Below the pieces are notes generated by a model, which was given only the letters and a program-made list of their open reading frames with translations, did no database searches and was not told the origin of the DNA. A program made the position numbers and the translations under genes. DNA of 52,215 bases from a virus (Duplodnaviria > Caudoviricetes), in IMG/VR virus record IMGVR_UViG_3300027987_000273, positions 1 through 52,215 of that record. One strand, written 5' to 3'. The stretch's first letter is position 1, and each line of letters begins with the position of its first letter. Shown in pieces: positions 1,769 to 52,215 of the stretch.

Positions 1769-3892
1769 TTACTTCTTGCCAGGTCTGAACGCCAGGTCGA
1801 ACAGAAGAGATGTAATTTTACCCTGGGCGTGGGTGAGTTCCACGTATTCCCCTTCGACCTTCTCGACCAGGCCCTTGCTGCGCCGGTCCAGGTTCTCGTC
1901 TCCGGTCGGAGGGAAGGACCGCGCGAACTCCGCGGAGATCTCGTTACCCCCCTCCATGGCCCGCCCGATGCGCTTGAACCTGTCGCTCGCCTCCTCGACG
2001 ATCTTCCGGGCCTTCGGCCTGCTGACCTTCCAGACCTTCGCTACCTCGTCGGTCAGGGGGTCGATGAATTCGGAGTAGCTGCCCCCGGTGGCGAAGTGTT
2101 GCGCCGGGACCCCGAACCGCTTCATCATGTCGCGTCGCGCCAGGACCTCGGTGGTTACCTCCTCGACGACCGCGCCCTGGAACCGGTAGCCCCTCATGAC
2201 CACCGGGCCGAACCCGTGGAAGGCCTCATGGTTCACGACCTTCGTGCCCCACACCCCCCGCTTGAGATCATAGTACCCCTTCGCCTTCAGCTGGGCGTGG
2301 ATGGCACTGCGCTCGGCGTCGAGGGTCTCGAATTCCGCCCACAGGGCCCGGTATTTTCGCGCCACCGCCTCGGAGACCGTCACCCCTTCGGGGACTGCGC
2401 CCACGCCGCTCCACTTCTCGAGTGTCAGCTGCTCCTGGAATGGGAGATCTATCGCCGACCGCTTCTCGATGTTCTTCACGACCGCCGCCTGGACCTTGTC
2501 CTGACGCTTGACGAGGGGTGCGGATTCCTTCCAGACCCGCTTCATCTCCGCCGGATTCGGAGCCCATTTTTCGGCGAACTCCTTGGCCATCTTCGCCACG
2601 CGGTTCGTGATGGAGATTGCCCCGTCCCAGTGATGGAGCCCCGCCGCGTCCCCCAGGCTGGGACGTACCCTCATAAGCCGTTTTTTTGCCTCGGTCTCGG
2701 ATGGCGCCCTCTTAATCTGGGCGAACCCCTGGCGGGACAGGTCGGCGTCTAGTACCTGGCGCGCCTTCGACCACTGGCCCTTCGCCAGGTGCGTCTCGTA
2801 GCCCGGTGGCGCCTTTTTCTTCGTCGCCCGGGGCTTCGTGGCCTTCGGCTTCGGCTGGTCCTTGGGCTTCGCCCTGGGCTTCCTGGGCGCGCGAACCGGT
2901 GCGTCCCACTCCGGGTGCCAGGCGACGACCACACACCTACAGTTCGGGTGCCTGGGAGGGTGCTGGACTCCGCCCGGGAACTCCGCCTTCTCGTCGACCA
3001 CGACCCCGTCCAGTTCGCGACACAGGGCACAGAGTCGGAAGTCCGCGCTCGCGTCCCACCGCTTCCTGAACGGGACGTCGCCCTCGGGGAGGTCGTCGTT
3101 CAGCTGCTCGATGGCGTCCAGGTGCTGGGCGTTATAGGCGTTCTGCATCTCCGTCCGGACCAGGCGCTCGCCCCAGTGCTGATATCTGCGGAACAGCCCC
3201 TCGGAGATGTCCTCGACGATGGCGCCGGGTTCGCCGACGACGCCGCGGAGGGCTACGAGCCCGCGCGGGCCGCCCAGGCGCCGGAGGCGACTCGTCATCT
3301 GGGCATAGGTCTCGCCCTTGGCCAGGCCGATCCCGAACTGGAGCCGGATGTCGTCCCGGATGTTCTGGACGTACCGGGCCGCAGACGTTCGGAACCTGGG
3401 CACGAGCTCGCGCTGTCCAGCAGCCACCAGGGCCGCCGTGTCGATCTGGGTGGGCATGATGGCCAGGTTCCCCGGGCCGCCGAACACGTGCGCCAGGCGC
3501 GCGACCTCGCGTTCCACGTGGAAACCGGCCATGATGCCCGCCTCGGTCGCGCCATCGATCATGGCCTCGCCGATGCCAGGCTGGGCCTCGCGGATGGTCC
3601 TGATGGCCGTGTTGACCGACGCGAGGGCCCGATTCATCTGGTAGGCCGTGAATCTCTCATTCCCGCCCGGGATTTGCTGGTACCACTGGAGGAGCCCCTG
3701 GCGGAGCTCGGCCTTCGCCCGGGACAGGACAGGGAGGAGCTTCCTCATGACCTTCGGGTCGAGCTCGGCGACCTCGCGGGCCATGTCCTCCATGACCCGG
3801 GCGACCCTGCGCGCCTTCGACCGCCCTGGGTTGATGGGCGCATGGCGGCCAGGCGGGTCCGCGTCCGTCGTGATGGGCGGGTCAGGGGGCAC
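1769..3892 (-). CDS. MuF/SPP1 gp7-like minor head protein with C-terminal HExxH metallopeptidase-like extension
   Basis: RLVRTE, CALC and HPNCRC MuF motifs; K/P-rich linker; HEAFH at 2216-2230 followed by EEVTTE; located just downstream of the portal. Confidence 0.85.
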   Translation of the reverse strand: MPPDPPITTDADPPGRHAPINPGRSKARRVARVMEDMAREVAELDPKVMRKLLPVLSRAKAELRQGLLQWYQQIPGGNERFTAYQMNRALASVNTAIRTIREAQPGIGEAMIDGATEAGIMAGFHVEREVARLAHVFGGPGNLAIMPTQIDTAALVAAGQRELVPRFRTSAARYVQNIRDDIRLQFGIGLAKGETYAQMTSRLRRLGGPRGLVALRGVVGEPGAIVEDISEGLFRRYQHWGERLVRTEMQNAYNAQHLDAIEQLNDDLPEGDVPFRKRWDASADFRLCALCRELDGVVVDEKAEFPGGVQHPPRHPNCRCVVVAWHPEWDAPVRAPRKPRAKPKDQPKPKATKPRATKKKAPPGYETHLAKGQWSKARQVLDADLSRQGFAQIKRAPSETEAKKRLMRVRPSLGDAAGLHHWDGAISITNRVAKMAKEFAEKWAPNPAEMKRVWKESAPLVKRQDKVQAAVVKNIEKRSAIDLPFQEQLTLEKWSGVGAVPEGVTVSEAVARKYRALWAEFETLDAERSAIHAQLKAKGYYDLKRGVWGTKVVNHEAFHGFGPVVMRGYRFQGAVVEEVTTEVLARRDMMKRFGVPAQHFATGGSYSEFIDPLTDEVAKVWKVSRPKARKIVEEASDRFKRIGRAMEGGNEISAEFARSFPPTGDENLDRRSKGLVEKVEGEYVELTHAQGKITSLLFDLAFRPGKK

Positions 3893-4070: not shown

Positions 4071-5885
4071 CTACCTGGAGGAGAAGACGCTACGCTGGCC
4101 CTGGGCGACCTGGCGCCGCTGTTCGGCGCGAGGGGGAGGTTCGTCCTCGTCCTCGTCGTCGTCCTCCTCCTCGCCCTCGCCCATGCGCTCGAGGCCCTGC
4201 ATGGCGACGCTCTCCGCCATGAGGATGGACTCCGCCGTGACCATCTCCGTGACCTCCTCGCGGATGGCCGCGCGGTCGTTCTCGGTGAGCTCCCCGCCCA
4301 GGAGCAGGGTGTAGACCTTGATCAGGTACTTCTGGAGGAACGTGTGCGACTTCATGGGGAGGCCGTTCAGGACCTCGACCGCCTCCTCGATGGCCGCCTT
4401 CACGTCGACGTCAGAGAAGTTCTCGGCGCCGCACACCTTCGCGTCGAGCTCCTTGCCCCTGGCCCTCTCGACCAGGACCTTCACGTCGTGGAGGCCTTCG
4501 CGACCGTAGACGCCCAGGGCCGCCAAAACCACGCGAGTGACCGCTTCGTCCGCCTTCTTGCTGTCGCCCGACCTGTTCAGGGCCTTGGAGTCCATATCCG
4601 CAGACAGCGCCATGGAATACATGACCCGAAACATCTCCTGCATGATCTGGGCTGCGGACTCTCGCGACTCCTTGAACGGGGCGACGTCCGGGCCGATGAA
4701 CCTGGCGTCGTCGTCCTTGCCTCGGACCTGGCTGTAGCCCTGGCCGCGAACCTGGGACAGGGCCCTGTTCTCGTCCTCCTGGGCCGCCGAGACTGGCATG
4801 GTGCCCACGTCGTCCTCGGGTCCCAGGAACTCGTAGAGGATGGCGAAAAGGCTCTTGTATTCGGCCCAGGCTGTCGCGCAGCGTTTGTTGAAGTGTTCCC
4901 GGGCCAGGCTCTCGAGCTTCCCCATGGCCCAAAGGCCCTCGGGGATCTCGACGCACACGAACGGTACCTTATTGAACGAATGGGGCCCCTCGGCGAGGAA
5001 CGCCACCGGGGTCTCGGGCTTCGGCGGTTCCTTCGGGTCGTAGGTGATCCGGTACTGGACCCAGCCCACTCGGTCGTAGAACGTGTAAGTGTTCGTCACC
5101 AGACCCCGCTTGTCGCGGAGGCTGTTCCGGCGCTGCTCGCTGTCGCAGATCAGGACCCACTCGAGCTCGCCATTGTTGTCCTTCTGCCAGTCGATGACGT
5201 ATTCGGCTTCCACGCGGACCGCGTAGGGGTCGAGGAGGCCCGCCTTCTCCTGGGCCAGGACGCTGTCGATGGTCACCCCGTCCTCGGGGGTCTGGGGGAG
5301 GTCGACCAGGATCCACGACCGACGACAGATCAGCGCCTCGCGGACGACCTCCATCATCAGGCGCTGGGCCGACTGTCGCTTCCCTTCTGGGGGCGAGACG
5401 TCCTCGAGGAAATCCTTCCACCACTCGTCCAGCGGAGGCGCGTCCTCGCCCTCGGCGTTCGAGCTGGGCTCGATGGTGAGGGGGTCGGAACCCAGGCCAG
5501 CTACCAGGTGATCGACGATGGTGCCCGCATAGGGGAAGTAGAACGCGCGGTCGCAGCGCTCGCGGTAGACCTCCGGCGCCTCGTTCCGGTGCTTCGGGAA
5601 CAGGCGCTTCATCAGTCCTTTATTGCGCAGGAGGCGCGGGCCGCCAGCGTAGAGGGCGCGGAGCTCGGCCCACAGGTCGCTGTCATATTCCGGATGCCGC
5701 TCCATGAACAGCTCGAACGGGACGCTCCGACCTTCGCGCTCGTCGTCGGACAGTGCGCCAGCCCGGACAGTGCCACCGGCCATCATGAGAGCCTGGCGGA
5801 GCTGGTACTTTCGGAGCCCCTCCTCGATGGCAGAACCCGCGAGCTCGCGGTCGACGAGGGTCTGGAGGTCCAGTTCGACGGGCAT
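4071..5885 (-). CDS. Portal protein
   Basis: 604 aa between terL and MuF; YRERCDRA, WILVD and SGDSK motifs typical of portals; acidic tail. Confidence 0.85.
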   Translation of the reverse strand: MPVELDLQTLVDRELAGSAIEEGLRKYQLRQALMMAGGTVRAGALSDDEREGRSVPFELFMERHPEYDSDLWAELRALYAGGPRLLRNKGLMKRLFPKHRNEAPEVYRERCDRAFYFPYAGTIVDHLVAGLGSDPLTIEPSSNAEGEDAPPLDEWWKDFLEDVSPPEGKRQSAQRLMMEVVREALICRRSWILVDLPQTPEDGVTIDSVLAQEKAGLLDPYAVRVEAEYVIDWQKDNNGELEWVLICDSEQRRNSLRDKRGLVTNTYTFYDRVGWVQYRITYDPKEPPKPETPVAFLAEGPHSFNKVPFVCVEIPEGLWAMGKLESLAREHFNKRCATAWAEYKSLFAILYEFLGPEDDVGTMPVSAAQEDENRALSQVRGQGYSQVRGKDDDARFIGPDVAPFKESRESAAQIMQEMFRVMYSMALSADMDSKALNRSGDSKKADEAVTRVVLAALGVYGREGLHDVKVLVERARGKELDAKVCGAENFSDVDVKAAIEEAVEVLNGLPMKSHTFLQKYLIKVYTLLLGGELTENDRAAIREEVTEMVTAESILMAESVAMQGLERMGEGEEEDDDEDEDEPPPRAEQRRQVAQGQRSVFSSR

Positions 5886-5888
5886 GGC

Positions 5889-6137
5889 CTACTCCTTCGG
5901 CGTCTGCTTCCGCTTCCGCCTGGTGTTCTTCTTGGATGTCTTCGGGGGGTCCGGTGGGGTCTCCACCAGGGCGTCTTCGGCCTCCGCCTGGGCCGCCAGG
6001 GGTGGCGCGTCAGTGCGGACCTCCGGCGCAGGTTGAGCGGGCCTGGCCGGAGGCTGAGGTCGAACGCGAGGAGCCCGCCGCGGCGATGGGGCTGTTACAC
6101 CGCCGAAAACAACCGTTTCACGCGGAGGGCGTCTCAT
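5889..6137 (-). CDS. Small basic Pro/Arg-rich protein
   Basis: TAGTCT-N6-ATG leaderless signature; stop abuts the portal start. Confidence 0.5.
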   Translation of the reverse strand: MRRPPRETVVFGGVTAPSPRRAPRVRPQPPARPAQPAPEVRTDAPPLAAQAEAEDALVETPPDPPKTSKKNTRRKRKQTPKE

Positions 6138-6297
6138 GGCGCCAGACTATCACACCATCCGAGACCGGGACACGGACCCGGGTCGTCTTAGTGTGGACGC
6201 TAGTCGGCGCTGGGCGGGTCCGTCGGGGACCTCGCTCCCATTCAGCTCGGGCGGCCAGATGTGCCGCCCACCAGTCGTTCAGCGTTATCGCTTCCAT
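6118..6297 (-). CDS. Possible 59-aa peptide (MEAITLNDWWAAHLAARAEWERG...)
   Basis: GAGGTG SD just upstream, paired in a 10-bp stem; below the ORF-track cutoff. Confidence 0.35.
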   Translation of the reverse strand: MEAITLNDWWAAHLAARAEWERGPRRTRPAPTSVHTKTTRVRVPVSDGVIVWRHETPSA

Positions 6298-6700
6298 GTG
6301 GGCACCTCACACGGGGGATGATGCCCAATCCGGAGACGCGCTGCAACGGGTTTCCGGTGACACAGAGGAAAATTCAGTCAACCGGTGAGGTGCCTTAACA
6401 GACGAACCGCGCCCCCTGGCCAGGCGTTGAATCGACCCAGTGTCTGGCGAAGATCGGGGCCGACGGGACGAGCGACCAGGGGACGCGGAACTTGAAGGAA
6501 CAGGGACCGCATGAATCCCCGCAGGACGCCCTATAACACACCTGGCGCACAGAATTGAGACCCCGCCGCCACCATTGGCGACGGGGCCAGAGGCTTCGCC
6601 GTGGTGCTCCACCGATACAGATACCATAAACCCCGCCCAGGAGGGGATCTTCCCGGGCGGGGCTAACAGTTAGGGGCCTTCGCTGGCCAGGCGGAGGGGT
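6298..6700 (-). ncRNA. Candidate structured ncRNA / tandem small-RNA locus between terL and portal
   Basis: Stems 6631-6662, 6559-6588 (13 bp), 6407-6488 (15 bp) and 6301-6394 (10 bp, multibranch); most imperfect pairs are G-U on the minus strand; no convincing ORF. Confidence 0.55.
6628..6662 (-). terminator. Intrinsic terminator-like hairpin downstream of terL
   Basis: CCCCGCCC...GGGCGGGG stem followed by TTTAT on the minus strand. Confidence 0.5.
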
Positions 6701-6722
6701 ACCATACCGCCGCTCTCGCGGT

Positions 6723-8156
6723 CTACCCGAAGGGATTAGAAGCGACGCCAGGACCTCGGCGTCGGGGCTTCCTGGCCTTGAACAGCGTATTGAAGGCGTG
6801 CGCGATGGCGTCCACCTGGTCGTCGACGTCGGCCTTCGGGGTGAAGGCCGTCAGCTCCGAGATCAGATCCTTCGCCCAGGGCGCATCGATGGGGACGTGG
6901 ATCCGACCTTCGCTCCAGGCCGACCCGACGTTCTGGGCCCGCTGCCATTTGTCCCCTTCGGGCTGAATCTCGAGGACCCGGAGGCGCCTGTCCTCCTTGC
7001 GGAGGAGCTGGGGCACCGACTTGAACGCGCCCACCGCCTCCACCGCTGTCGCCACGCCCCAATATTTCGTCTGCATCTGGAGCAGGACCTCGACCAGCCT
7101 GGGGATCTCCACCTGGTCGCGGAAGACCTCGAGGACCCAGCCCTCCATCTTCTCGGCGTAGCCCTTGGCCGCCATGACCAGGGCGACGCTGTAGTCCGCA
7201 GCCGTCGACTCCGTCGCCGCAGGGTCGCAGGCGATGACCAGGCGATGTCCGTCCAGCTTCCAGTCGGCCAATTTGAACCGCGAGGGGTAGTCGCTGAATA
7301 GCTGCTGGCCCTTCGTGATGGGCGCCTGCTGGTACAGCGAGGAGAACCCGTAAGGCCCCATGATGGAGCGAATTCCATGGAGCTTCTTGGCCGGCCACCT
7401 GTCGGGCCAGAGGGCCTCGCCTGGCTTGCGACCGAGGAGGTCGCCCTTCTCCGCCAGAGCAGGGAGCCGGATGCGCTCGAAGACTACCCTCTCGCCGGTC
7501 TCCGGGTCCTCGAACCCCTTCAGAAGGCGCCCGACCAGGTCGTCCTTGTGCCAGCGCGTCATGATGACGAGGACCGACGCAATCTCCTCCAGGCGGGACC
7601 AGAACGTGTCCGTGAACCAGTCCCAGATATTGTCCCGGATGAGCTTCGACTCCGCCTCCTTGCGGTTCTTGATGGGGTCGTCGACGACCGCCACACCGGT
7701 GATCCCCTTGCCAGTGAGAGGGCCCTCGACACCCGTGGCCAGGAAGCTCCCCCCGAACGTGTTCTCCCAGTGATGGACGTTCTCGGACGTGAGCTCGAGC
7801 CCGCCCTCCTTGACCAGGCGCCGCACTGCGCGCGACTTATTCAGCGACAGGGCGTCGGCATAGGTGATATAGGCGTGATGGAGTGCCGGGTCGAGCTCCA
7901 TGCGCCAGGCGAACCCGTGGATCGCGGTCGTCGTCTTCGCGTGTCTGGGTGGGAGCTCGATGATGGCCCGGACGGGCTCGTAGCGCGTCCGCTCCCAGAC
8001 GTCGATCAGGGGCTTCAGGTGCGGAGGAGGGGGGAGCCTGGGGTTCCGACGACGGATGAACGGGTCGAGGCCCTCGGCGTTCGCGTCGTAGGCGTACAGC
8101 TCGGCGAGACGCTGCTCGTCCTCGACACTGAACACGTCCTGGGCGAGTGCCACCAT
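6723..8156 (-). CDS. terL: Terminase large subunit
   Basis: PPRHAKT Walker A, VVDDP Walker B, MTRWH motif, ACDPA and DDQVDA RNase H-like nuclease motifs. Confidence 0.95.
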   Translation of the reverse strand: MVALAQDVFSVEDEQRLAELYAYDANAEGLDPFIRRRNPRLPPPPHLKPLIDVWERTRYEPVRAIIELPPRHAKTTTAIHGFAWRMELDPALHHAYITYADALSLNKSRAVRRLVKEGGLELTSENVHHWENTFGGSFLATGVEGPLTGKGITGVAVVDDPIKNRKEAESKLIRDNIWDWFTDTFWSRLEEIASVLVIMTRWHKDDLVGRLLKGFEDPETGERVVFERIRLPALAEKGDLLGRKPGEALWPDRWPAKKLHGIRSIMGPYGFSSLYQQAPITKGQQLFSDYPSRFKLADWKLDGHRLVIACDPAATESTAADYSVALVMAAKGYAEKMEGWVLEVFRDQVEIPRLVEVLLQMQTKYWGVATAVEAVGAFKSVPQLLRKEDRRLRVLEIQPEGDKWQRAQNVGSAWSEGRIHVPIDAPWAKDLISELTAFTPKADVDDQVDAIAHAFNTLFKARKPRRRGPGVASNPFG

Positions 8157-8157
8157 C

Positions 8158-8553
8158 TCAGTCCTCGTCGTCGTCGCGCGTCATCTCGACGCGAACAGGG
8201 AGCGACGGGGGCGTCTGGATGGTCGCGCCCTCGGGGCACTTGTGACCGAACAGGATGGTCCCATCAGGCTGGAGGTCGCAGGTGACGCCAGGGAGCCCGC
8301 CGTCCTTGAGCCCGACGCGGATGGCGTTCTCGATGCGCCGGAGGTTCGTGCGCGTGCCAGGGAGCCCCTCGAGAGGCTTCACGGCCTTCGACACGATGCG
8401 CGAGATATACCGACAGAGCCCCTCGTAGCTGTCGACGCCGTACAGGCGACACACCTCGGGGTTCTGGAAGTCGGGGACCGTTGAGACCAGGGGCGCAGGT
8501 GGAGCCGGTTCATCGTCTCGAACGAGTCGCAGAAATGGCGCATCTCCAGCCAC
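8158..8553 (-). CDS. Hypothetical protein
   Basis: Abuts the terL start; TAAGCT -10-like hexamer upstream. Confidence 0.6.
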   Translation of the reverse strand: MAGDAPFLRLVRDDEPAPPAPLVSTVPDFQNPEVCRLYGVDSYEGLCRYISRIVSKAVKPLEGLPGTRTNLRRIENAIRVGLKDGGLPGVTCDLQPDGTILFGHKCPEGATIQTPPSLPVRVEMTRDDDED

Positions 8554-8761: not shown

Positions 8762-9028
8762 TCACCGGCGCCGTCGGTGCTGGCCCGCCTGGGGGCACGT
8801 CCTGAAATGGACGACGTAGAGGCGCCCCTTCCGCTCGGCCTGGGGCACCACGCGCCCATACCAGGTGGAGCGGTCCAGCTTCCCTGGGCGCCGCTCGACG
8901 TTACCATCGGGGACAGGAACAGGGTCGAGAGGGGTCGGCGCCAGGCTGGGGACCATCTTCACCCAGAGGATGACCTGGCCGCAGGTGCGACACTTGCCCT
9001 CGCCCTCGGGATGGCGCTGGCGGGTCAT
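8762..9028 (-). CDS. Small Zn-binding phage protein
   Basis: CRTCG.I.W...P.D...HFRTCP pattern. Confidence 0.7.
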   Translation of the reverse strand: MTRQRHPEGEGKCRTCGQVILWVKMVPSLAPTPLDPVPVPDGNVERRPGKLDRSTWYGRVVPQAERKGRLYVVHFRTCPQAGQHRRRR

Positions 9029-9387
9029 CGGCCCCCCAGGAGAGGCGCCAGGGCTTCGGCATGGAACAGCGCGGCGTCTGCTCTGGCCAGGTCCTCGGCC
9101 AGGCCATCCAGAACAGGTCTATAGCCCATCAGGGCCATCGCCTTCCCGCAGACCACGACCGTCGCCACCCGGTCCTCGGCGAACAGGTGGAGGGCCGTCT
9201 GGTCTCCGGGAAAGTCCCGCTCCATGGTGTACTGAGACGCCCAGGTCGTCTCCTGGGCGATGAACATGGCGGGGTCGTTGGCGTAGGACAGGAGGAACGG
9301 AAGGTCGTGACGGGGAGGAGGTAGCTTCCTCCGTGCGATGCGCCCCTCGGCCTGGACGACCAGGGGCCGGTAGGGGTGGTCAGTCAC
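9025..9387 (-). CDS. Hypothetical protein
   Basis: GTG start with GAGG SD; overlaps neighbours. Confidence 0.6.
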   Translation of the reverse strand: MTDHPYRPLVVQAEGRIARRKLPPPRHDLPFLLSYANDPAMFIAQETTWASQYTMERDFPGDQTALHLFAEDRVATVVVCGKAMALMGYRPVLDGLAEDLARADAALFHAEALAPLLGGR

Positions 9388-9643
9388 CGCGTTCGTGCCT
9401 AACCGCTGGAGGGGTGTGGTCGTGGAGGGGTTCGGCCCGACAGTGACGGATCGCGAGCCCGTCGATGAGGTCACAGGGCCAGGGGATGTCCGTTTTCCGC
9501 CAGTTCCTGGACATGACCTCGTCTTCTGTGAACCGGTGGGCGCGGTCGAGCTCGCAGGTGTAGCCGGCGCGCCCCTCGGCCCACCACAGGACACAATTCC
9601 CGACGACCTGTCGCCGGTCCTGGACATAGAACATCTTCGCCAT
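9380..9643 (-). CDS. Conserved-looking small phage protein
   Basis: YVQD...GNCVLWW...GYT.ELDRA..FT pattern. Confidence 0.65.
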   Translation of the reverse strand: MAKMFYVQDRRQVVGNCVLWWAEGRAGYTCELDRAHRFTEDEVMSRNWRKTDIPWPCDLIDGLAIRHCRAEPLHDHTPPAVRHERGD

Positions 9644-9777
9644 GGGGCCCATGTAGCACACCTGGACCGCGGACAGGCGGGATCTCTCGACCCCGGTCCG
9701 GTCTTGGCCGCCCTTTCGGGCCTGGGCCTCGAGTCGGTGGGTGTCGAGAGCTCCTCAACGGGACCCGTCGGCCCCGC

Positions 9778-9789
9778 AATTGCGCAATT
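9778..9789. promoter_or_regulatory. Perfect 12-bp palindrome AATTGCGCAATT in the divergent promoter region
   Basis: AT-rich palindrome between divergent transcription units. Confidence 0.45.
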
Positions 9790-9843
9790 ACCCGTTACCC
9801 TACCTGTACCACACCGGAAATCGGTGAACGTCGGTCGCTTTGT

Positions 9844-9875
9844 CCTTGTGGACCTGTGTCTGAATTCGTATACTG
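9844..9875 (+). promoter_or_regulatory. Sigma70-like promoter P1
   Basis: TTGTGG-N17-TATACT, then AACACAGGAGGAC SD; 28/32 identical to 10951-10982. Confidence 0.75.
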
Positions 9876-9898
9876 AATGGGCAACACAGGAGGACGTC

Positions 9899-10090
9899 AT
9901 GGACCGAAACACCGCTATCACCGAGCTCCAGAACGACATCGCCGAGATGGAGGCCTTCATCGCCGAGGAGGGCGACGACTTCGGCCAGTGGACGCGCATC
10001 CTCGACGAGCAGCGCGCATACCTGGCCCGCCTGCTGGCCGGTGGCCCGGTTGAGTTCTTCTCCGGCGCGACGGTCGGGGGTGCGCTGTGA
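9899..10090 (+). CDS. Hypothetical acidic protein (63 aa)
   Basis: AGGAGG SD; first gene after P1. Confidence 0.75.
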   Translation: MDRNTAITELQNDIAEMEAFIAEEGDDFGQWTRILDEQRAYLARLLAGGPVEFFSGATVGGAL

Positions 10091-10443
10091 GTCGGCGCGC
10101 AGCCCCCGGCCCCTGGACGGGTCCGTCGTCGTTCTCGCTCTACCTCGGGGGCGCCACCGCTCCTGGGTGCGTCGTCGTCGAACACTGCCATCTGGAATGG
10201 ACCGGCGAGGAGACCCCGAAGGCGATCCGGGTGACCGGGAAGACCTACACCGGGAAAACGGTCGCCGCCTGGCTTCCGAAGCGTGCCATCGTGTCGGAGC
10301 GGGTCGACAAACTTGGATGTGCGGTCGCCGACGACCAGCCCGCGTTCGCCACGACCTACAGCCTGGCCCGCTGGTTCCGTCCGACCGGATGGACCGCGCG
10401 CTTCCTCGAGCTCACCTCGGACATCTCGGGGGTCTCAGCATGA
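10087..10443 (+). CDS. Hypothetical protein
   Basis: GTGA/ATGA overlaps with neighbours. Confidence 0.65.
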   Translation: MSRRAAPGPWTGPSSFSLYLGGATAPGCVVVEHCHLEWTGEETPKAIRVTGKTYTGKTVAAWLPKRAIVSERVDKLGCAVADDQPAFATTYSLARWFRPTGWTARFLELTSDISGVSA

Positions 10444-10702
10444 ACCGCGTCTCGGCCATCACCCTGGGTTCCCACCGCGGTCGCCCCCGCGTGTACATTC
10501 AGGGCCGCTACCTGCTCGACGCCGGGTTCGCCCCCGGCCAGCGCGTCTCCGCCTCGTTCGAGGACGGTCGCGTCGTCCTGGACCTGTCGGCCCAGGGCGA
10601 GCGTCGCGTCTCCCAGAAGCGGGGAGGGACGCCGGTCGTCGACATCAACTCGGCCGCTCTCGCCGAGGCCTTCGGCGACGCCCGCGACCTGGTCGTCCGG
10701 GT
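10440..10702 (+). pseudogene. 5' fragment of a SymE-like domain gene (as found at the N-terminus of some phage/plasmid C5 DNA methyltransferases)
   Basis: LGSHRGRPRVYIQGRYLLDAGFAPG...TPVVDINS; sequence becomes non-protein-like after about 10702. Confidence 0.55.
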
Positions 10703-10942
10703 ACCGTGGAGCAGGTGTGGGAGTGTATCGCCCAGGCGCCGACCGAGCCCCATCCAGCCTACGCCCTGGGCATGTCCCGGCTCTCCTGCGCCTTCTGCAT
10801 CCTCGCCAGCCGTCGGGACCTCCAGATCGCCGCAGAGCACAATCCCGAACTGCTGGCGGAGTATGTGCGCATAGAGGCGAAGATCGGCCACACCTTCCGC
10901 AAGGATGCCAGCATCGTCCAGCTCACCAGGCGCCCCCGGTGA
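10703..10942 (+). pseudogene. 3' fragment of a PAPS reductase family gene
   Basis: TVEQVW...HPAYALGMSRLSCAFCILAS...IGHTFR in a different frame; no own SD and no N-terminal PP-loop. Confidence 0.7.
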
Positions 10943-10950
10943 ATTTTAGG

Positions 10951-10982
10951 CCTTGCGGTTCTGTGTCTGAATTCCTATACTG
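10951..10982 (+). promoter_or_regulatory. Sigma70-like promoter P2
   Basis: TTGCGG-N17-TATACT; near copy of P1 including the CTGTGTCTGAATTC spacer. Confidence 0.75.
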
Positions 10983-11008
10983 GAGGAGAAGGAACACAGG
11001 AGGACAGC

Positions 11009-11431
11009 ATGAAACAGACCCATCCAGTAACCGCCGCCGCCCGCAACTCGAAAAAGGCCCTCCGGGCCCTCGGGTTCGGCGTCTCCGTCAGGTCGACCCG
11101 CAGCTACCACGGCGACCGCGTCATCGTTCGCGTGGACAGCATCCCGGCCAGGACCGAGGCCATCTGCCTCCGCGAGATGGACACGGCCGACGGTCTCATC
11201 ACCGAGCTCAAAGCCTGGCGGAATGCCGTCGGGTTCGTCGTCCAGGGCGTCATCGCCGACCTGGTCGGCGATGCCTCCATCACGGTCGACGTCCGGGCCG
11301 AGATGCCCGGCGAGGCCGAGGAGGCGCCCTGCTCGGTCTGCATCCTCGATGGCGCGCCCTGCGCCGATTGCGCGGACGCGGAAGCCCATCGCACGTTCGC
11401 CGCGTTCGCCGGCTACGCAGGGGGGCGCTGA
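11009..11431 (+). CDS. Hypothetical protein with C-terminal CxxC-CxxC
   Basis: AGGAGG SD after P2. Confidence 0.75.
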   Translation: MKQTHPVTAAARNSKKALRALGFGVSVRSTRSYHGDRVIVRVDSIPARTEAICLREMDTADGLITELKAWRNAVGFVVQGVIADLVGDASITVDVRAEMPGEAEEAPCSVCILDGAPCADCADAEAHRTFAAFAGYAGGR

Positions 11432-11619
11432 TGAGGAAGCGAGACCCGCGCATCCCGCTGGTGGAGCAGGTCCGGGCGCTGGCCTACGAGCTGGCGCAGC
11501 CCGACGAGGAGCTGGACTTCTACGGGGCCGCCTTGGCCCTGGGCTGCGACGAGCAGAAGGCCGAGGAGCTCGACGAGGAGCTCACCATCCGTACCATGCG
11601 CGCCCGGGGTGCCCTGTGA
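11431..11619 (+). CDS. Hypothetical protein (MRKRDPRIPL...)
   Basis: TGATG coupling. Confidence 0.6.
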   Translation: MRKRDPRIPLVEQVRALAYELAQPDEELDFYGAALALGCDEQKAEELDEELTIRTMRARGAL

Positions 11620-11939
11620 CCCCGCGCCGTCGGTTCCGGTTCGAGGTCGAGTGGTACGAACAGCGCCGCGACATGGAGCCGGTCGTCCACGGAACCAACG
11701 ATGTCGCCGAGGCCTTCCAGTGGGCCCGCGAGATGGACGGGACCGTGTGGGACCGCGACCGCGCCGATCGCCATCACCGCAACGGTCGCGACTTCTCCGC
11801 CGATACCGCCTGCGCCGTGGACTCTGGCGACGTCCCCGGGCGCTGGTTCTGCGACTGCCTGGCCTGCGGCGAGTGGCAGTCGAACCGCGACCCCGACACC
11901 CAGCCCGCGCCCCCACAGGAGTGGCTCCTCGATGATTGA
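11616..11939 (+). CDS. Hypothetical Cys-containing protein
   Basis: GTGA overlap; CDCLAC motif. Confidence 0.6.
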   Translation: MTPRRRFRFEVEWYEQRRDMEPVVHGTNDVAEAFQWAREMDGTVWDRDRADRHHRNGRDFSADTACAVDSGDVPGRWFCDCLACGEWQSNRDPDTQPAPPQEWLLDD

Positions 11940-12129
11940 TCATGGAACCACCAGGGCGCACCGGATCCACCGGTCGCCCTCGCCCTCGGGCCTCAACTAC
12001 CTCGAGACGCGCTCCGAGCGTTACTGCGCGCACTGCGCGACCTGGGTCCCGGTTTACGGAGTGACCGGGGCCCTCCATTGGATGGCCACCCACAGGGATG
12101 GCGATTGCACACAGGAGAACAGCCGATGA
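11932..12129 (+). CDS. Hypothetical protein with CxxC
   Basis: Overlapping start and stop in the operon. Confidence 0.55.
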   Translation: MIDHGTTRAHRIHRSPSPSGLNYLETRSERYCAHCATWVPVYGVTGALHWMATHRDGDCTQENSR

Positions 12130-12332
12130 CATACAGCGAACAGCGGAACACCCGCTTCACCCCCGAACAGGCCGCCGAGGTCGACCGGGTCGCCGAGGAA
12201 GCAGGCCTCAGCGTCTCGGAGCTCGTCCGACTCGCGGTCCTCTCCGCGGTCGAGCGATGCCCCCTCTGCGGCGCCCACAGGGCCCACCACGGCCCGTCCG
12301 TCGCGGGCATGGCGGAAGGGGCCCGCCGATGA
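12126..12332 (+). CDS. Ribbon-helix-helix (CopG/Arc-like) DNA-binding protein with CPLCG tail
   Basis: RNTRFTPEQAAEVDRVAEEAGLSVSELVRLAV; AGGAG SD. Confidence 0.7.
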   Translation: MTYSEQRNTRFTPEQAAEVDRVAEEAGLSVSELVRLAVLSAVERCPLCGAHRAHHGPSVAGMAEGARR

Positions 12333-12616
12333 ACGAGCTCGACAGGGGGCTCCTGAAGCGGGCCGACGAGGAGATCTCGAACACCGCCGGGTCGAGCTTC
12401 CTGGTGGTGCGCCATTGTCACTGGCAAGCCACCAGGGGCGCCATCTTCGCCCGGGACCTCCAGGGCAAGATCAACGGGCTAATCGGGACGCTCGCGGAGG
12501 AGACCCGCGAGGAGCTCCTGGACAGCCTGGCCCAGGTGGCCGACGTCCTCCGTGGGGTCATCCTCGCGACGGTCACCTACGAGGACGGGACCGACCGCAT
12601 GGGAGGAGACCGATGA
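12329..12616 (+). CDS. Hypothetical protein
   Basis: ATGA overlap. Confidence 0.6.
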   Translation: MNELDRGLLKRADEEISNTAGSSFLVVRHCHWQATRGAIFARDLQGKINGLIGTLAEETREELLDSLAQVADVLRGVILATVTYEDGTDRMGGDR

Positions 12617-12789
12617 CCCGGGCGGAGGCGAAGACCGTGGAGATGCTGGTCGACGACGCGACCCGGGCCCTCGAGGACGTTCTCCAGAAGCCCCACTCCA
12701 GCCCGGTCGGGGCCCTCGTTCGGAACGCGCTGGTCGCCCTGGGCCGCCTGGACCTGATCGCCCAGGTCGAGCTCCTGGAGGGCGACTGA
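12613..12789 (+). CDS. Hypothetical protein
   Basis: GGAGG SD, ATGA overlap. Confidence 0.6.
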   Translation: MTRAEAKTVEMLVDDATRALEDVLQKPHSSPVGALVRNALVALGRLDLIAQVELLEGD

Positions 12790-13013
12790 TGGCTGAATAT
12801 GCAGAATACGGACGGACCCACTGTGAGTTCTGCTGCGCGAAGATCCAGGGGGAACACTGGTCCTGGTCTCAGTGCAACAATGGCGGGGTCGGAGTGACCC
12901 TCTGCGAGGGCTGCGCGAGGGCTGCGGAGCACCTTCCCCGAAGGCTGGTCTATGTTCTCCGCTGCGTCGGCGAGACCGCCTGGGAACTCCTACACGAGGA
13001 CCCGGACGTCTGA
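12789..13013 (+). CDS. Small Zn-finger-like protein
   Basis: CEFC...CEGC; TGATG coupling. Confidence 0.6.
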   Translation: MAEYAEYGRTHCEFCCAKIQGEHWSWSQCNNGGVGVTLCEGCARAAEHLPRRLVYVLRCVGETAWELLHEDPDV

Positions 13014-13249
13014 TGGGCCTGAAGCCACGGAAGCCACCGGAGTCCTCCGACTGGGGGTTCGACCCGAAGAACCCGTTACGCGACCCCCAGGACCTCTACC
13101 GGGCCGCCCTGCGGTTCGCGGCGAAGGCCCTGGAATACACGGCCCAGGGCACGGGCGACCAGCTCCAGGCGATGCAGGACGCCCAGAAGGAACTCCGCCA
13201 TCAGGCCCACCGCTACGCCGGGGCCCGCCGCGGCGACTCTGGCATCTGA
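13013..13249 (+). CDS. Hypothetical protein (last gene of the plus cassette)
   Basis: TGATG coupling. Confidence 0.6.
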   Translation: MGLKPRKPPESSDWGFDPKNPLRDPQDLYRAALRFAAKALEYTAQGTGDQLQAMQDAQKELRHQAHRYAGARRGDSGI

Positions 13250-13527
13250 ACCCCCTCCTCGCGGAGGGTGCGAGATAGCACACCCACGGACACGCCCAGC
13301 TCCTCAGCGATGAGGCGCATGGGCGTTGTCTCGTTTCGGAACCTGCGGACCAGGTCGGCCCTGGCCCGGTCGTTCAGGAGGCATCCACCATGGCAGGGAA
13401 GCAGGGACCCAGCGCAGGGCGCCCAGGGCTCGCCACACACCGGACACGGCCTGGTCCAGTGATAGCCGGGGCCCCAGGGTTCGGCGCGCAGGGGGAGCCG
13501 GAAGCTACTCTCGGTGCACCCTGGCAC
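13213..13527 (-). CDS. Cys-rich protein with C-terminal HTH
   Basis: CPVC...MRLIAEELGVSVGVLSRTL; start uncertain. Confidence 0.55.
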   Translation of the reverse strand: MPGCTESSFRLPLRAEPWGPGYHWTRPCPVCGEPWAPCAGSLLPCHGGCLLNDRARADLVRRFRNETTPMRLIAEELGVSVGVLSRTLREEGVQMPESPRRAPA

Positions 13528-17229: not shown

Positions 17230-17706
17230 TCACTCGTCGTCGGAACCCGTGGACAGGTGCCCAGCGACGTCGACGACCGGAAGGCGCCCCAGAGCCGCCT
17301 CGCGCTTCGCCTGGAGCCTGTCGATCTCGGCCTGGCGTTCCAGCGGGGTCATCGCCCGGACGTCCACATGACCTGATACCGTGTGCTCCACCTTCGTGGG
17401 GCTGTCGAGCCCGTCGAACTTCTGCCAGGTCTGGAGGACCGTGGCCGCCGCCCGGTAGTCTCCAGCGTCGAGCGACTGGTTCCAGCTGTATTGGAGGCGC
17501 TGGCGATGCTGGGCGCGCCTCTCGGGCCGGTAGCGCTCCTCCTCGGTGGCCCACTGCTTGCGGACCAGGGTGGCCCATTCCCGGACCGTGTACCGCGAGA
17601 TCCCGAACTCCTCGGCGACCTCGCGCCAGAAGTCGGTGACCCGCTCGCCCCGGATTAGCCGGAGCTCCACCGCCCTGAACGCGAGGGGGTCTCGGGGCTT
17701 CCGCAT
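17230..17706 (-). CDS. terS: Probable terminase small subunit
   Basis: N-terminal HTH (EVAEEFGISRYTVREW), helical core, GLDSPTKVEHTVSG...MTPLERQAEI C-terminus typical of TerS; TATACT-N6-ATG. Confidence 0.7.
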   Translation of the reverse strand: MRKPRDPLAFRAVELRLIRGERVTDFWREVAEEFGISRYTVREWATLVRKQWATEEERYRPERRAQHRQRLQYSWNQSLDAGDYRAAATVLQTWQKFDGLDSPTKVEHTVSGHVDVRAMTPLERQAEIDRLQAKREAALGRLPVVDVAGHLSTGSDDE

Positions 17707-23218: not shown

Positions 23219-23257
23219 GGGCGGAACCTATCCACAGGGAGGAGGGTTCGTCACCCG

Positions 23258-23298
23258 AAAAATGCAAGGCCCCACCGCCGGGGGGGACGGTGGGGCCT
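23258..23298 (-). terminator. Intrinsic terminator after the recombinase gene
   Basis: 11-bp stem AGGCCCCACCG/CGGTGGGGCCT, then TGCATTTTT. Confidence 0.7.
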
Positions 23299-23343
23299 CA
23301 GAGGATGCAGCGACCCACTCGGAGAGGCGCCGCTGACAGTCTA

Positions 23344-24677: not shown

Positions 24678-25738
24678 TTCGACCAGGTCCTGGGCACACA
24701 GAACCGCCGCGACCCGGGCTTCTTGGTGGTGCTGAGGCTCACGATATGATTGCACCAGCCCTCGGTCGTCTTCACGTGGTCGTCCGCGTCGGGGAACTGC
24801 GAGACCGCGTTCAGCAGCTGGCCGCGGTACAGCTGCGCGACCTCCTTCCAGTCGACCTTCTGCGAGTCCTTCGACCGACGCCAGGTGATCTCCCCCAGGG
24901 AGCTGGTCACCGCGTCGGCGCCACCGATGAACCCTTTGATCCGCTGTTCCAGTTCGGCCTCGCGCTTCTCGAGCTCCTTTTTCTCCGCGCGCACCTCGCG
25001 GAGCTCGGCGATGTTCTCCTCGATGTCGGGGGTCGCCTCGATGGCCTCCGGTCTCGGATTCGGGAACCTGGAGGCCAGATATTCGGTGTAGAACTTCGAC
25101 CCGTCGGGCTCGGGCTCGACGTTCGCCACCACGTGATTGAACCAGAAGTCGCGACCGACCTCGACCAGCTGGCCCTCGAGCTCCTCGTCTCGGTGGATGG
25201 TGTAGTCGTGGGTCACGTTGTCCATCCACACACAGAGGTCCCAGCGCTCCAGGGGGACGCCGTAGACCGACCGGGCGACGTAGATGTTCCAGGCGCACTG
25301 GATGATCTCCCAGGGCGGGACGTCGTCGGTCCCCTGCTCGCCGTACAGGTGATCCATCCACCCGGTGTGGGTCTTAATCTCGAGACCGCGACAGGGGAGC
25401 TCGGCCTTCATGATGAGGTCTGGCCGGTGCGCGATGGCCAGGGCCTCGAAGCAGATGCCATCGGGTGTGGCGATGGCCCAGGGCTGCTCGCGGTGTCGCA
25501 GGCTCCCAGGGACGTCGACCAGGAGCTCGAACCGCCGCTGGTATCGGTTGCGGATGTAGGGCTCGAGGAGGTCACCGATCTCGCGCCGCTCGTTGTCCTC
25601 CTCGTCGGGGAACTCGAGCCCCTTTTTCAGGCGCCAGACGTTGATCGCCCCCTTGTAGGGCGAGACGCCGCAGATGGCCGCCATGTCAGTCGCAGTGATC
25701 CCGCCTCGCCGAAAGGCGAGCTGTTCCTGTGTCAGCAT
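24674..25738 (-). CDS. YqaJ-like (lambda-exo family) recombination exonuclease
   Basis: RRGGITATD, G..LEP, ATPDG, LEIKT, IQC motifs. Confidence 0.92.
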   Translation of the reverse strand: MLTQEQLAFRRGGITATDMAAICGVSPYKGAINVWRLKKGLEFPDEEDNERREIGDLLEPYIRNRYQRRFELLVDVPGSLRHREQPWAIATPDGICFEALAIAHRPDLIMKAELPCRGLEIKTHTGWMDHLYGEQGTDDVPPWEIIQCAWNIYVARSVYGVPLERWDLCVWMDNVTHDYTIHRDEELEGQLVEVGRDFWFNHVVANVEPEPDGSKFYTEYLASRFPNPRPEAIEATPDIEENIAELREVRAEKKELEKREAELEQRIKGFIGGADAVTSSLGEITWRRSKDSQKVDWKEVAQLYRGQLLNAVSQFPDADDHVKTTEGWCNHIVSLSTTKKPGSRRFCVPRTWSK

Positions 25739-50472: not shown

Positions 50473-50505
50473 CTATCGCCCCCCCTTCTGGTATCCTGGG
50501 AACGT

Positions 50506-50569
50506 CCAGGCCGGGCCGGGGCCGGAGTGACACTGGAGTAGTAAAGCCCCAGCCCACGGCCCGTCCTGG
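50506..50569 (-). promoter_or_regulatory. Long intergenic hairpin in the neck operon
   Basis: CCAGG-CGGGCCG-GGGCTGGGG pairs with CTCCGGCCC-CGGCCCG-CCTGG. Confidence 0.4.
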
Positions 50570-50579
50570 CGAAAATTCG

Positions 50580-51523: not shown

Positions 51524-52215
51524 TTACAGCGTGGCGTCGAGGTCGACGAGGGACCCCTGGGCGTTGCAGCGACGGACCTTGAGCTGCGGGTACAGGATCA
51601 GCTGGAACCGGTAGCTGTCGCCATTGCGACCCAGCGGGTTGATCCTGGCCACCAGGCCGGTCATCTGCGGACCCATGTCCATCTCGGGGGTGCCTTGCAC
51701 GCCGATCATGCCCATGGACTGGTTCACCTCGGAGATCCGGTCGGGCATCTGGCACATCTTGATGTGCCGCGTCGCGAGGAAGGACATCGCCGTCGACGGA
51801 TGGTCGACGTCGCGAACGACGGGGATCCCGTCGAACTCGAGGGCGTTGTGACCACCCTGGAGGGTGATCCGACGTCCGCGGATGGTCACGTCCTGCTGCC
51901 ATCGCCGCTCGTTGCCGAACAGCTTCGAGAACTTCGACCACAGGGCCGGGCCCGTCACGATCAGGTCGGTGTTCTCACCAGACGCGGTGTAGATCGCGTC
52001 CAGGGTGTCGCGCATGAGGTCGAACGTCAGGGCGCGCGGGACGCCGCCGTTCGCCAGCTCATTGGACGCCCACTGGGCCTGGGCTGCGCGGTCGATGCCC
52101 GCGTAGACGCCAGTCGTGTCCAGCGGACCAGACGTGGAATACATACCCACGATCTGTTCGGCCGCACCTGCGCCGGTCCAGAGATCGGCGTTGATGCCCT
52201 TCGCGAGACGTTCGA
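51524..52215 (-). CDS. Major capsid protein, C-terminal part
   Basis: YAGIDR...W...G, DLIVT, F.GIPVV.D, CNAQG motifs; joins 499-1. Confidence 0.88.
   Translation of the reverse strand, partial: ERLAKGINADLWTGAGAAEQIVGMYSTSGPLDTTGVYAGIDRAAQAQWASNELANGGVPRALTFDLMRDTLDAIYTASGENTDLIVTGPALWSKFSKLFGNERRWQQDVTIRGRRITLQGGHNALEFDGIPVVRDVDHPSTAMSFLATRHIKMCQMPDRISEVNQSMGMIGVQGTPEMDMGPQMTGLVARINPLGRNGDSYRFQLILYPQLKVRRCNAQGSLVDLDATL
52072..52215. repeat. Terminal direct repeat, right copy
   Basis: Identical to 1-144. Confidence 0.95.

Follow-up and report, generated by a model that had tools for sequence, protein, structure and literature searches.

A lineage-specific, hairpin-rich non-coding insert at a putative transcription-unit boundary between the terminase and head genes of an uncultured tailed phage

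The packaging RNA (pRNA) of phage phi29 is an essential part of the packaging motor, in which loop-loop pairing between molecules builds a ring on the prohead connector; such an RNA would be expected in phages that share the motor, and the Rfam database holds a covariance model for it. In lambdoid prophages, the anti-small RNAs AsxR and AgvB lie at the insertion sites of morons, i.e., autonomous inserts in a phage operon, and RNAs of this type, which form a related set with known targets, were detected through Hfq cross-linking as well as northern blots, according to excerpted sections of Tree et al. 2014 (PMC4104026). An excerpt of the report on actinobacteriophage WC1 describes highly transcribed non-coding intergenic regions (nc_1 to nc_3), with others in D29 and Kampy (PMC10986025), and the excerpted text of a survey of structured-RNA candidates in IMG/VR lists many terminators and cis-regulatory candidates (PMC10690425). 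Here, we analyzed a gene-free, hairpin-dense region of 425 nt (positions 6298–6722) on the minus strand between the large terminase gene terL and the small conserved gene p59 of IMG/VR virus record IMGVR_UViG_3300027987_000273, a tailed phage (Caudoviricetes). The window, i.e., the whole stretch of DNA analyzed, is this complete virus genome of 52,215 bp, in which nearly all genes are on the minus strand as judged from the GC content at codon positions.

A preliminary description of the region had proposed either several promoter-hairpin small RNAs (sRNAs) or one large, packaging-associated RNA; what we find instead is more ordinary: fast-evolving non-coding DNA, rich in hairpins, that has been inserted where two transcription units appear to meet. 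It is specific to the lineage and belongs to kinds already known, and no relatives of it were found in the collections searched. With stacked intrinsic terminators and structured 3′ untranslated regions (UTRs) it shares GC-rich sense-strand stem-loops after a stop codon, T-enriched tails and a following promoter, and it differs from them in having three successive stem-loops and, as a fourth element, a composite stem, all spread over ~375 nt, short U-tracts and an activity that is putative. Leader hairpins that sequester a Shine-Dalgarno (SD) sequence are matched by a perfect 10-nt anti-SD sequence complementary to the conserved SD block of p59, but here the loop encloses the promoter of the regulated gene, so that only read-through RNA can form the stem, and the effect is predicted. 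The lambdoid moron sRNAs, as excerpted, are comparable small non-coding units that end in a terminator and occupy a tolerant late-region slot varying between relatives, whereas for the candidate units of this phage no family was found, nor a target above chance among the phage's own messages, and both host and phage type differ (PMC4104026). As for the WC1 regions, the common trait is a gene-free intergenic stretch in a high-GC phage; in the excerpt, theirs are found far to the left, in the middle and far to the right on the genome, not after terL, and their expression was shown, and the likeness is one of description (PMC10986025). Like phi29 pRNA, the region is a structured phage RNA candidate near packaging genes, but it is absent from relatives that share the motor proteins and matches no Rfam family.

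With a probability of roughly 0.45, we read the region as a non-coding "punctuation" cassette, specific to this lineage, that occupies the variable slot separating terL from the head genes and is composed of three stacked terminator-type hairpins, which would close the terS-terL message, and a device that would insulate p59. Folded as a whole, 6298–6722 reaches –210.6 kcal/mol on the minus strand (dinucleotide shuffles –179.4 ± 5.7, z –5.45) and –197.2 kcal/mol on the plus strand (–169.5 ± 6.6, z –4.24), with 0 of 100 shuffles as good on either strand, so the exceptional structure that had been proposed withstands this comparison. In a GC-corrected scan of the minus strand of the genome (150-nt windows, step 50 nt), the window 6551–6700 has the second most negative folding energy (z –3.69), while the terL-portal interval of a control, the 40% relative L180, folds like its shuffles (z –0.42). 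Ranking first in this GC-corrected scan (z –4.61) is the window at the 107-nt intergenic gap 50473–50579 (minus strand), where a long GC-rich hairpin stands between two structural genes. Codon periodicity is also missing from the region, and the stretch around it (6016–6480 plus 6466–6735) is the longest of this sort in the genome, which agrees with its having been noticed as a gap in an otherwise densely packed genome.

Four stems make up this structure, and their previously noted positions were all borne out by refolding, together with a repeat search for the arms of H1 and H4. Reading from terL on the minus strand, a small hairpin (GGCC-AGCGAA-GGCC, 4 bp, 6675–6688) bearing a first GCGAAG precedes H1 (6629–6664), a GC-rich, terminator-like stem-loop of 14 pairs that is followed by TTTATGGTATCTG and whose core arms (6631–6642/6651–6662) are those recovered by the repeat search. 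H2 (6559–6588) has 13 pairs and a 4-nt loop and is preceded by a second small hairpin that carries the other GCGAAG (6594–6599). The linker at 6496–6551, which is not unusually structured (z –0.38), carries TGTTATAGGG, a weak hairpin and a CU-rich tract, GUUCCUUCAAGUU; the first of these elements resembles the extended –10 of this phage group with its final T missing. It is followed by H3 (6407–6488), an outer stem of 16 pairs around an inner stem-loop, ending in TTCGTCTGTT, and by H4 (6301–6394), a perfect 10-nt closing stem around three sub-hairpins, found by repeat search and folding.

Each of the four hairpins is more stable on the minus strand than 200 of 200 mononucleotide shuffles, with a z of –5.4 for H1. 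H1 (–29.6 kcal/mol on the minus vs. –27.2 kcal/mol on the plus strand), H2 (–27.4 vs. –19.6) and H3 (–51.5 vs. –41.1) are favored on the minus strand by 2.4, 7.8 and 10.4 kcal/mol respectively, and their G-U pairs function on this, the sense strand, only. The energies of the single hairpins thus match the earlier remark that the imperfect positions favor the minus strand while one inner stem favors the plus strand. The 15 nt past the stem contain 7 (H1), 5 (H2) and 6 (H3) T residues, compared with 15% T on the minus strand of the genome, and the AT skew switches over the region, where the minus strand becomes T-rich. Since they are stabler on the sense strand and have T-enriched tails, H1–H3 resemble three stacked intrinsic terminators, placed as stable, GC-rich sense-strand stem-loops shortly past the stop codon of terL.

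The last 50 nt of the region belong to something else. An alignment with the terL-p59 spacers of three related loci (L118, L172 and L175) shows that 6298–6347 is conserved and contains a –35 element (TTGCAG, 6341–6346), a 17-nt spacer, a conserved –10 element (CATCAT, 6318–6323) and an SD sequence (GAGGTG, 6303–6308), as well as a block, GTGAGGTGCCC, that is invariant among the four aligned sequences directly ahead of the p59 start codon. By this alignment, these 50 nt are the predicted promoter and SD of p59 and not part of a new element, so the region does not hold together as one RNA unit: the supposed RNA includes control sequences that belong to the next gene, a conserved promoter and its ribosome-binding site. 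The conserved SD block is also the 3′ arm of H4 (6301–6310, enclosing the SD sequence), while its 5′ arm (GGCACCTCAC, 6385–6394) lies in the private part of the region and is an anti-SD sequence that pairs with it in 10 of 10 positions. When the 150 nt upstream were dinucleotide-shuffled 20,000 times, an anti-SD 10-mer of this kind arose in only 46 cases, hence the complementarity exceeds chance. As the p59 promoter lies inside the H4 loop, the H4 stem is possible only in RNA coming from upstream.

A second promoter-like element was found ahead of the next gene, the Pro/Lys-rich small gene p82 (5889–6137), as an extended –10 (TG at 6151–6152 and TAGTCT at 6144–6149) placed 6 nt before the ATG. 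The pattern TG-n-TAnnnT occurs at exactly this distance in nine of nine p82 starts (this record, L083, L084, L085, L118, L169, L170, L172 and L175, two of which are identical). A TAnnnT hexamer also stands 6 nt before the operon-first starts at 25738, 23218 and 17706, of which only 25738 has the TG extension. An extended –10 at such a distance from the ATG is read as a promoter for leaderless messages; the p82 mRNA is thus probably leaderless, and the pattern suggests that messages of the group are leaderless and that the host RNA polymerase uses extended –10 promoters. Such promoters 6 nt before the ATG, with which several operons of the group appear to begin, may aid the annotation of these uncultured genomes. 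Since the p59 promoter is kept in the three aligned loci and the p82 promoter in all nine, new transcripts are predicted to start right past the region, and a terminator after terL is therefore to be expected. Other operon boundaries of this phage consist of a single GC-rich hairpin followed by a promoter. One of them (23219–23343) looks like a single-hairpin version of the boundary after terL: it contains, on the minus strand, a textbook-looking terminator (23267–23298) with a perfect 11-bp core, ~14 pairs in all and the tail UUGCAUUUUUC, and past it a TAGGTT box 6 nt before an ATG.

In order to see what related phages carry in this slot, we used DNA from Joint Genome Institute (JGI) metagenomes and IMG/VR. 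The terL product has many full-length relatives (55–72% identical), and ten loci from seven distinct phages span the end of terL and the start of the portal gene, with terL 57–66% and portal 39–59% identical (best aligned segment). Their terL-portal intervals of 332–1015 nt are filled by p59, p82 or a gene for 105 amino acids (aa), and none of the ten has a counterpart of 6348–6722. In L169 and L170, terL is followed almost directly by p82; L118, L172 and L175 have an 80–90-nt spacer and then p59; L083 has a different small open reading frame (ORF) in the slot; and in L084/L171 and L085/L177 the 105-aa gene and one strong hairpin precede p59. More distant relatives (41–46%) hold several small coding genes there. 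The extra gene of L084 (5409–5721) and L085 (5418–5736) is a conserved gene of 104–105 aa with the shared motifs TFV..FTMDDL..W..HP..TGKT..FNG, and the strong conserved hairpin past it abuts the start codon of the p59 homolog. The idea that our region is a decayed copy of this gene was rejected, as tblastn showed no trace of it.

The ~375-nt insert is extra DNA between genes that are adjacent (L169, L170) or separated by a short spacer (L118, L172, L175) in relatives, as in a moron. By these comparisons, the terL-portal slot is an apparent insertion hot spot, occupied by protein genes in some of the phages and by non-coding DNA in this one, and the insert appears private to this phage among the sequences searched. 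Hairpins are present at or after the terL stop in L118 and L172 and after the extra gene in L084 and L085 according to their folds, while in L170 a palindrome at or after the terL stop was seen in the sequence; because relatives also bear hairpins at that place, the unit boundary after terL seems to be ancestral.

Searches beyond these loci gave the same picture. The region had no blastn or nhmmer match in 284 loci (1.67 Mb), no blastn match among INPHARED phages, no second copy within the record, and only a 17-nt chance match (E 0.126) in the records of two relatives, one complete and one half-complete, while tblastx of the slot against all loci returned high-GC noise only. Among pattern searches of IMG/VR, TATGGTA..GCGAAG..GCCCCG gave 34 matches, 0 of 34 with a matching hairpin, the H4 arm pair gave 0 matches, and the conserved SD block gave three, i.e., the contig of L172 and two by chance. 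That the region matches no recognized RNA family was also confirmed, as no family of Rfam 15 reached its gathering score anywhere in the record: the best sub-threshold score was 20.1 bits for RsmW (gathering 52), the best E-value 0.17 for anti-hemB, and pRNA was not among the 13 sub-threshold matches at E ≤ 10. ARAGORN found no transfer RNA or transfer-messenger RNA. A Logan contig of 683 nt, probably from the same sample, covers 6185–6867 without differences, and the insert junctions are thus not peculiar to one assembly. Two sequencing runs hold the region, both DNA from a hydrothermal-vent-type metagenome, with no RNA run among them and no variants seen; they are possibly one data set filed twice, probably the source sample.

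Taken as a punctuation cassette, the insert (~375 nt) would form, in minus-strand transcripts, a long and structured 3′ UTR of the terS-terL message. We infer that H1, H2 and H3 would stop or pause the RNA polymerase and shield the 3′ end of this message, and that the conserved p59 promoter directly after them would begin a new transcription unit. Within read-through RNA, pairing of the H4 5′ arm (GGCACCUCAC) with the SD region of p59 would hide the ribosome-binding site of this gene, so that p59 would be translated only from transcripts begun at its own promoter within the H4 loop.

Several observations weigh against this reading. The H1–H3 U-tracts are short and interrupted, the proximal tail of H2 is U-poor, and a simple terminator scan that requires 5 T in 8 found no site in 6298–6722 on either strand. 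H4 prefers the plus strand, where its energy (–49.7 kcal/mol) is 8.7 kcal/mol below that on the minus strand (–41.0 kcal/mol). One terminator would suffice, which leaves three of them and 330 nt unaccounted for, and no covariation supports any stem, because no homolog was found. Finally, the motif TATGGTA occurs twice, 78 nt apart, which is unlikely by chance and needless if the hairpins are purely terminators.

These two boxes are the starting point of the next most probable explanation, to which we assign clearly lower but still appreciable odds: the region would hold two, perhaps three, independent sRNA genes, each with its own –10 box and terminator (H1, H2, H3), acting in trans on host or phage messages, with sizes of ~65–70 nt and one of ~130 nt. 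Box 1 (6700–6706) lies 17 nt past the terL stop and contains a –10-like TATGGT (6701–6706), a predicted promoter with no TG extension; box 2 (6622–6628) doubles as the tail of H1 and contains a –10-like hexamer (6623–6628) with an A 7 nt downstream; a third –10 may perhaps be TGTTATAGG near 6530–6538. TATGGTA has three matches in the whole record vs. 0.41 expected (0 of 100 shuffles reach three), two of them on the sense strand here, its hexamer bears the key A and T of a –10, and a strong hairpin with a T-rich tail follows each box within ~70 nt. The linker between H2 and H3 has a common sRNA layout, i.e., a small 5′ hairpin, a single-stranded CU-rich tract and a terminator. The cassette also sits in a slot where relatives bear other accessory inserts, which is the moron pattern, and the excerpted sections of PMC4104026 describe short sRNAs of phages located where morons insert.

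Against such sRNA genes stands the form of the promoters, as the recognizable ones of this group carry TGnTAnnnT in all nine p82 starts and the TATGGT boxes are without TG. Three of the seven minus-strand TGTTA sites of the genome do fall in the region and carry the TG, but their hexamers have C, G or C in place of the final T, and a generic promoter scan found no site in 6298–6722. The TATGGTA, GCGAAG (6678–6683 and 6594–6599) and TGTTA sites of the preliminary description are thus where it placed them, while the architecture it saw as shared by the first two units is marginal: the motifs are present, but the units align with a score of 21 vs. 12.2 ± 4.2 when shuffled, 37 of 1000 shuffles are as good and MAFFT gives no sensible alignment. 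A covariance model built from the two units was abandoned, as they do not align. Its anti-SD-like tracts are likewise present with marginal enrichment (CCTCC 2 vs. 1.1 expected; [CT]CCTC[CT] 3 vs. 0.9, equalled in 51 of 1036 windows). Complementarity to messages of the phage itself is at the level of chance (antisense matches 17 vs. 13.5 ± 6.0 for 11-mers and 5 vs. 3.5 ± 2.6 for 12-mers), and conservation of the unit pattern was not found elsewhere in IMG/VR, where its matches lack the hairpin. A slightly more specific and slightly less probable version of this explanation is a non-coding moron, in which two to three autonomous sRNAs (~65–130 nt) were acquired behind terL and act on host translation or defence late in infection; if so, their CU-rich, CCUCC-containing single strands might bind purine-rich ribosome-binding sites, a possibility that goes together with the moron itself. 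Should the sRNA explanation hold, this environmental phage would provide a further example of accessory cargo that codes for no protein.

Promoter-like boxes followed by terminator-like hairpins directly upstream of structural genes could also mean an antitermination or attenuation leader of the head-gene operon, for which lambda pR′-6S RNA-tR′ is the model, and we consider this improbable. Transcripts begun constitutively at the TATGGT boxes would end at H1–H3 unless an antiterminator or the translation of a mini-ORF permitted read-through into p59, p82 and portal. There is such an ORF of 11 codons (ATGGTA...TAA, 6671–6706, minus strand) that starts in box 1 and stops 6 nt before H1, and between units 1 and 2 the ATG-to-GCGAAG and GCGAAG-to-GGCCCC spacings both change by 6 nt; as this is a multiple of three, the frame is kept. 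This frame conservation may be chance, whose probability is ~1 in 9, and no clear SD precedes the mini-ORF. Moreover, for expression of these head genes relatives have promoters immediately before p59 and p82 and no leader, H4 would block the translation of p59 in the read-through RNA, and no antiterminator gene was recognized among 40 ORFs scanned.

About equally improbable is a role at the level of DNA, or a relic with no RNA function, such as the footprint of a miniature inverted-repeat transposable element (MITE), a repetitive extragenic palindromic (REP) sequence or an IS200-type insertion-sequence end, or a set of protein-binding sites (TATGGTA, CTGTTA). The restriction of the insert to this lineage in an insertion hot spot fits this view, as do the over-representation of TGTTA and TATGGTA in the region, the preference of H4 for the plus strand, unlike H1–H3, and two repeats, namely an 11-nt direct repeat (CTGGCCAGGCG, 6416–6426 and 6683–6693) and an 18-nt imperfect inverted repeat that spans most of the insert. 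A mobile element or repeat family is disfavored by the lack of a second copy in the genome or in the collections searched, and this only long inverted repeat is imperfect; in addition, the G-U bias of H1–H3 points to RNA-level selection on the sense strand.

A protein gene in the region is very improbable. The ORF at 6307–6627 is open for 321 nt (106 aa) and nearly fills the gap from H1 to p59, but its GC content at the three codon positions (GC1/GC2/GC3) is 0.62/0.69/0.56, compared with 0.66/0.44/0.88 in terL, similar values in the portal and MuF genes and ~0.65/0.45/0.88 in typical genes of the record. It lacks codon periodicity, has no Pfam or PHROG match and no homolog at E ≤ 0.01 among 5.8 billion proteins, and is not listed there as a called protein of the record. 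The other small ORFs of the region were rejected as coding too, and the view that it carries no credible gene is upheld.

Least probable of all is a packaging-associated RNA like that of phi29, or another essential structural RNA of terminase and portal, which has in its favor only the position between terL and portal and the strong structure, and which is very unlikely, given that the element is missing from phages whose terL and portal are homologous (none of the ten loci of seven phages, collected as the preliminary description had advised, carries it), in addition to the empty blastn, nhmmer and Rfam searches described above.

As regards the surroundings, the local gene order on the minus strand begins with an ORF of 131 aa (8158–8553) and terL (6723–8156; Pfam Terminase_6C, E 1.2e−12, and Terminase_6N, E 9.4e−07), the upstream neighbor of the insert, whose stop codon ends at 6723. 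Directly downstream of the region, p59 (6118–6297) matches no Pfam or PHROG family and has an N-terminal W..H..R motif common to ORFs in L084, L085, L118 and L172. It is followed by p82, the portal gene (4071–5885; phrog_145 portal protein, E 2.3e−26) and a gene for a Mu F-like head protein (1769–3892). Farther along, baseplate and neck matches suggest a myovirus-like phage. The 40 ORFs scanned included no recognizable phage RNA polymerase, and no host was found via GTDB genomes, which gave only loci at ≤ 42% identity.

A direct terminal repeat of 144 nt (1–144 and 52072–52215) appears to lie within the coding region of the major head protein, and the ORF at 51524–52150 matches profiles of this protein over its C-terminal half only. 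Because the repeat is inside a coding sequence, it looks like an assembly overlap and not like a pair of physical ends; the record was thus probably assembled as a closed circle and opened within the capsid gene, and nothing is learnt from it about the physical genome ends. Elsewhere, an ORF of 158 aa (17230–17706, minus strand) matches phrog_645 "Rnase E" (E 2.5e−09) and no Pfam domain, so the label is putative. The stretch 8908–13504 has few long ORFs of typical composition, with strong codon periodicity and frequent frame changes, and probably consists of many small genes, some of them on the plus strand, rather than of non-coding DNA.

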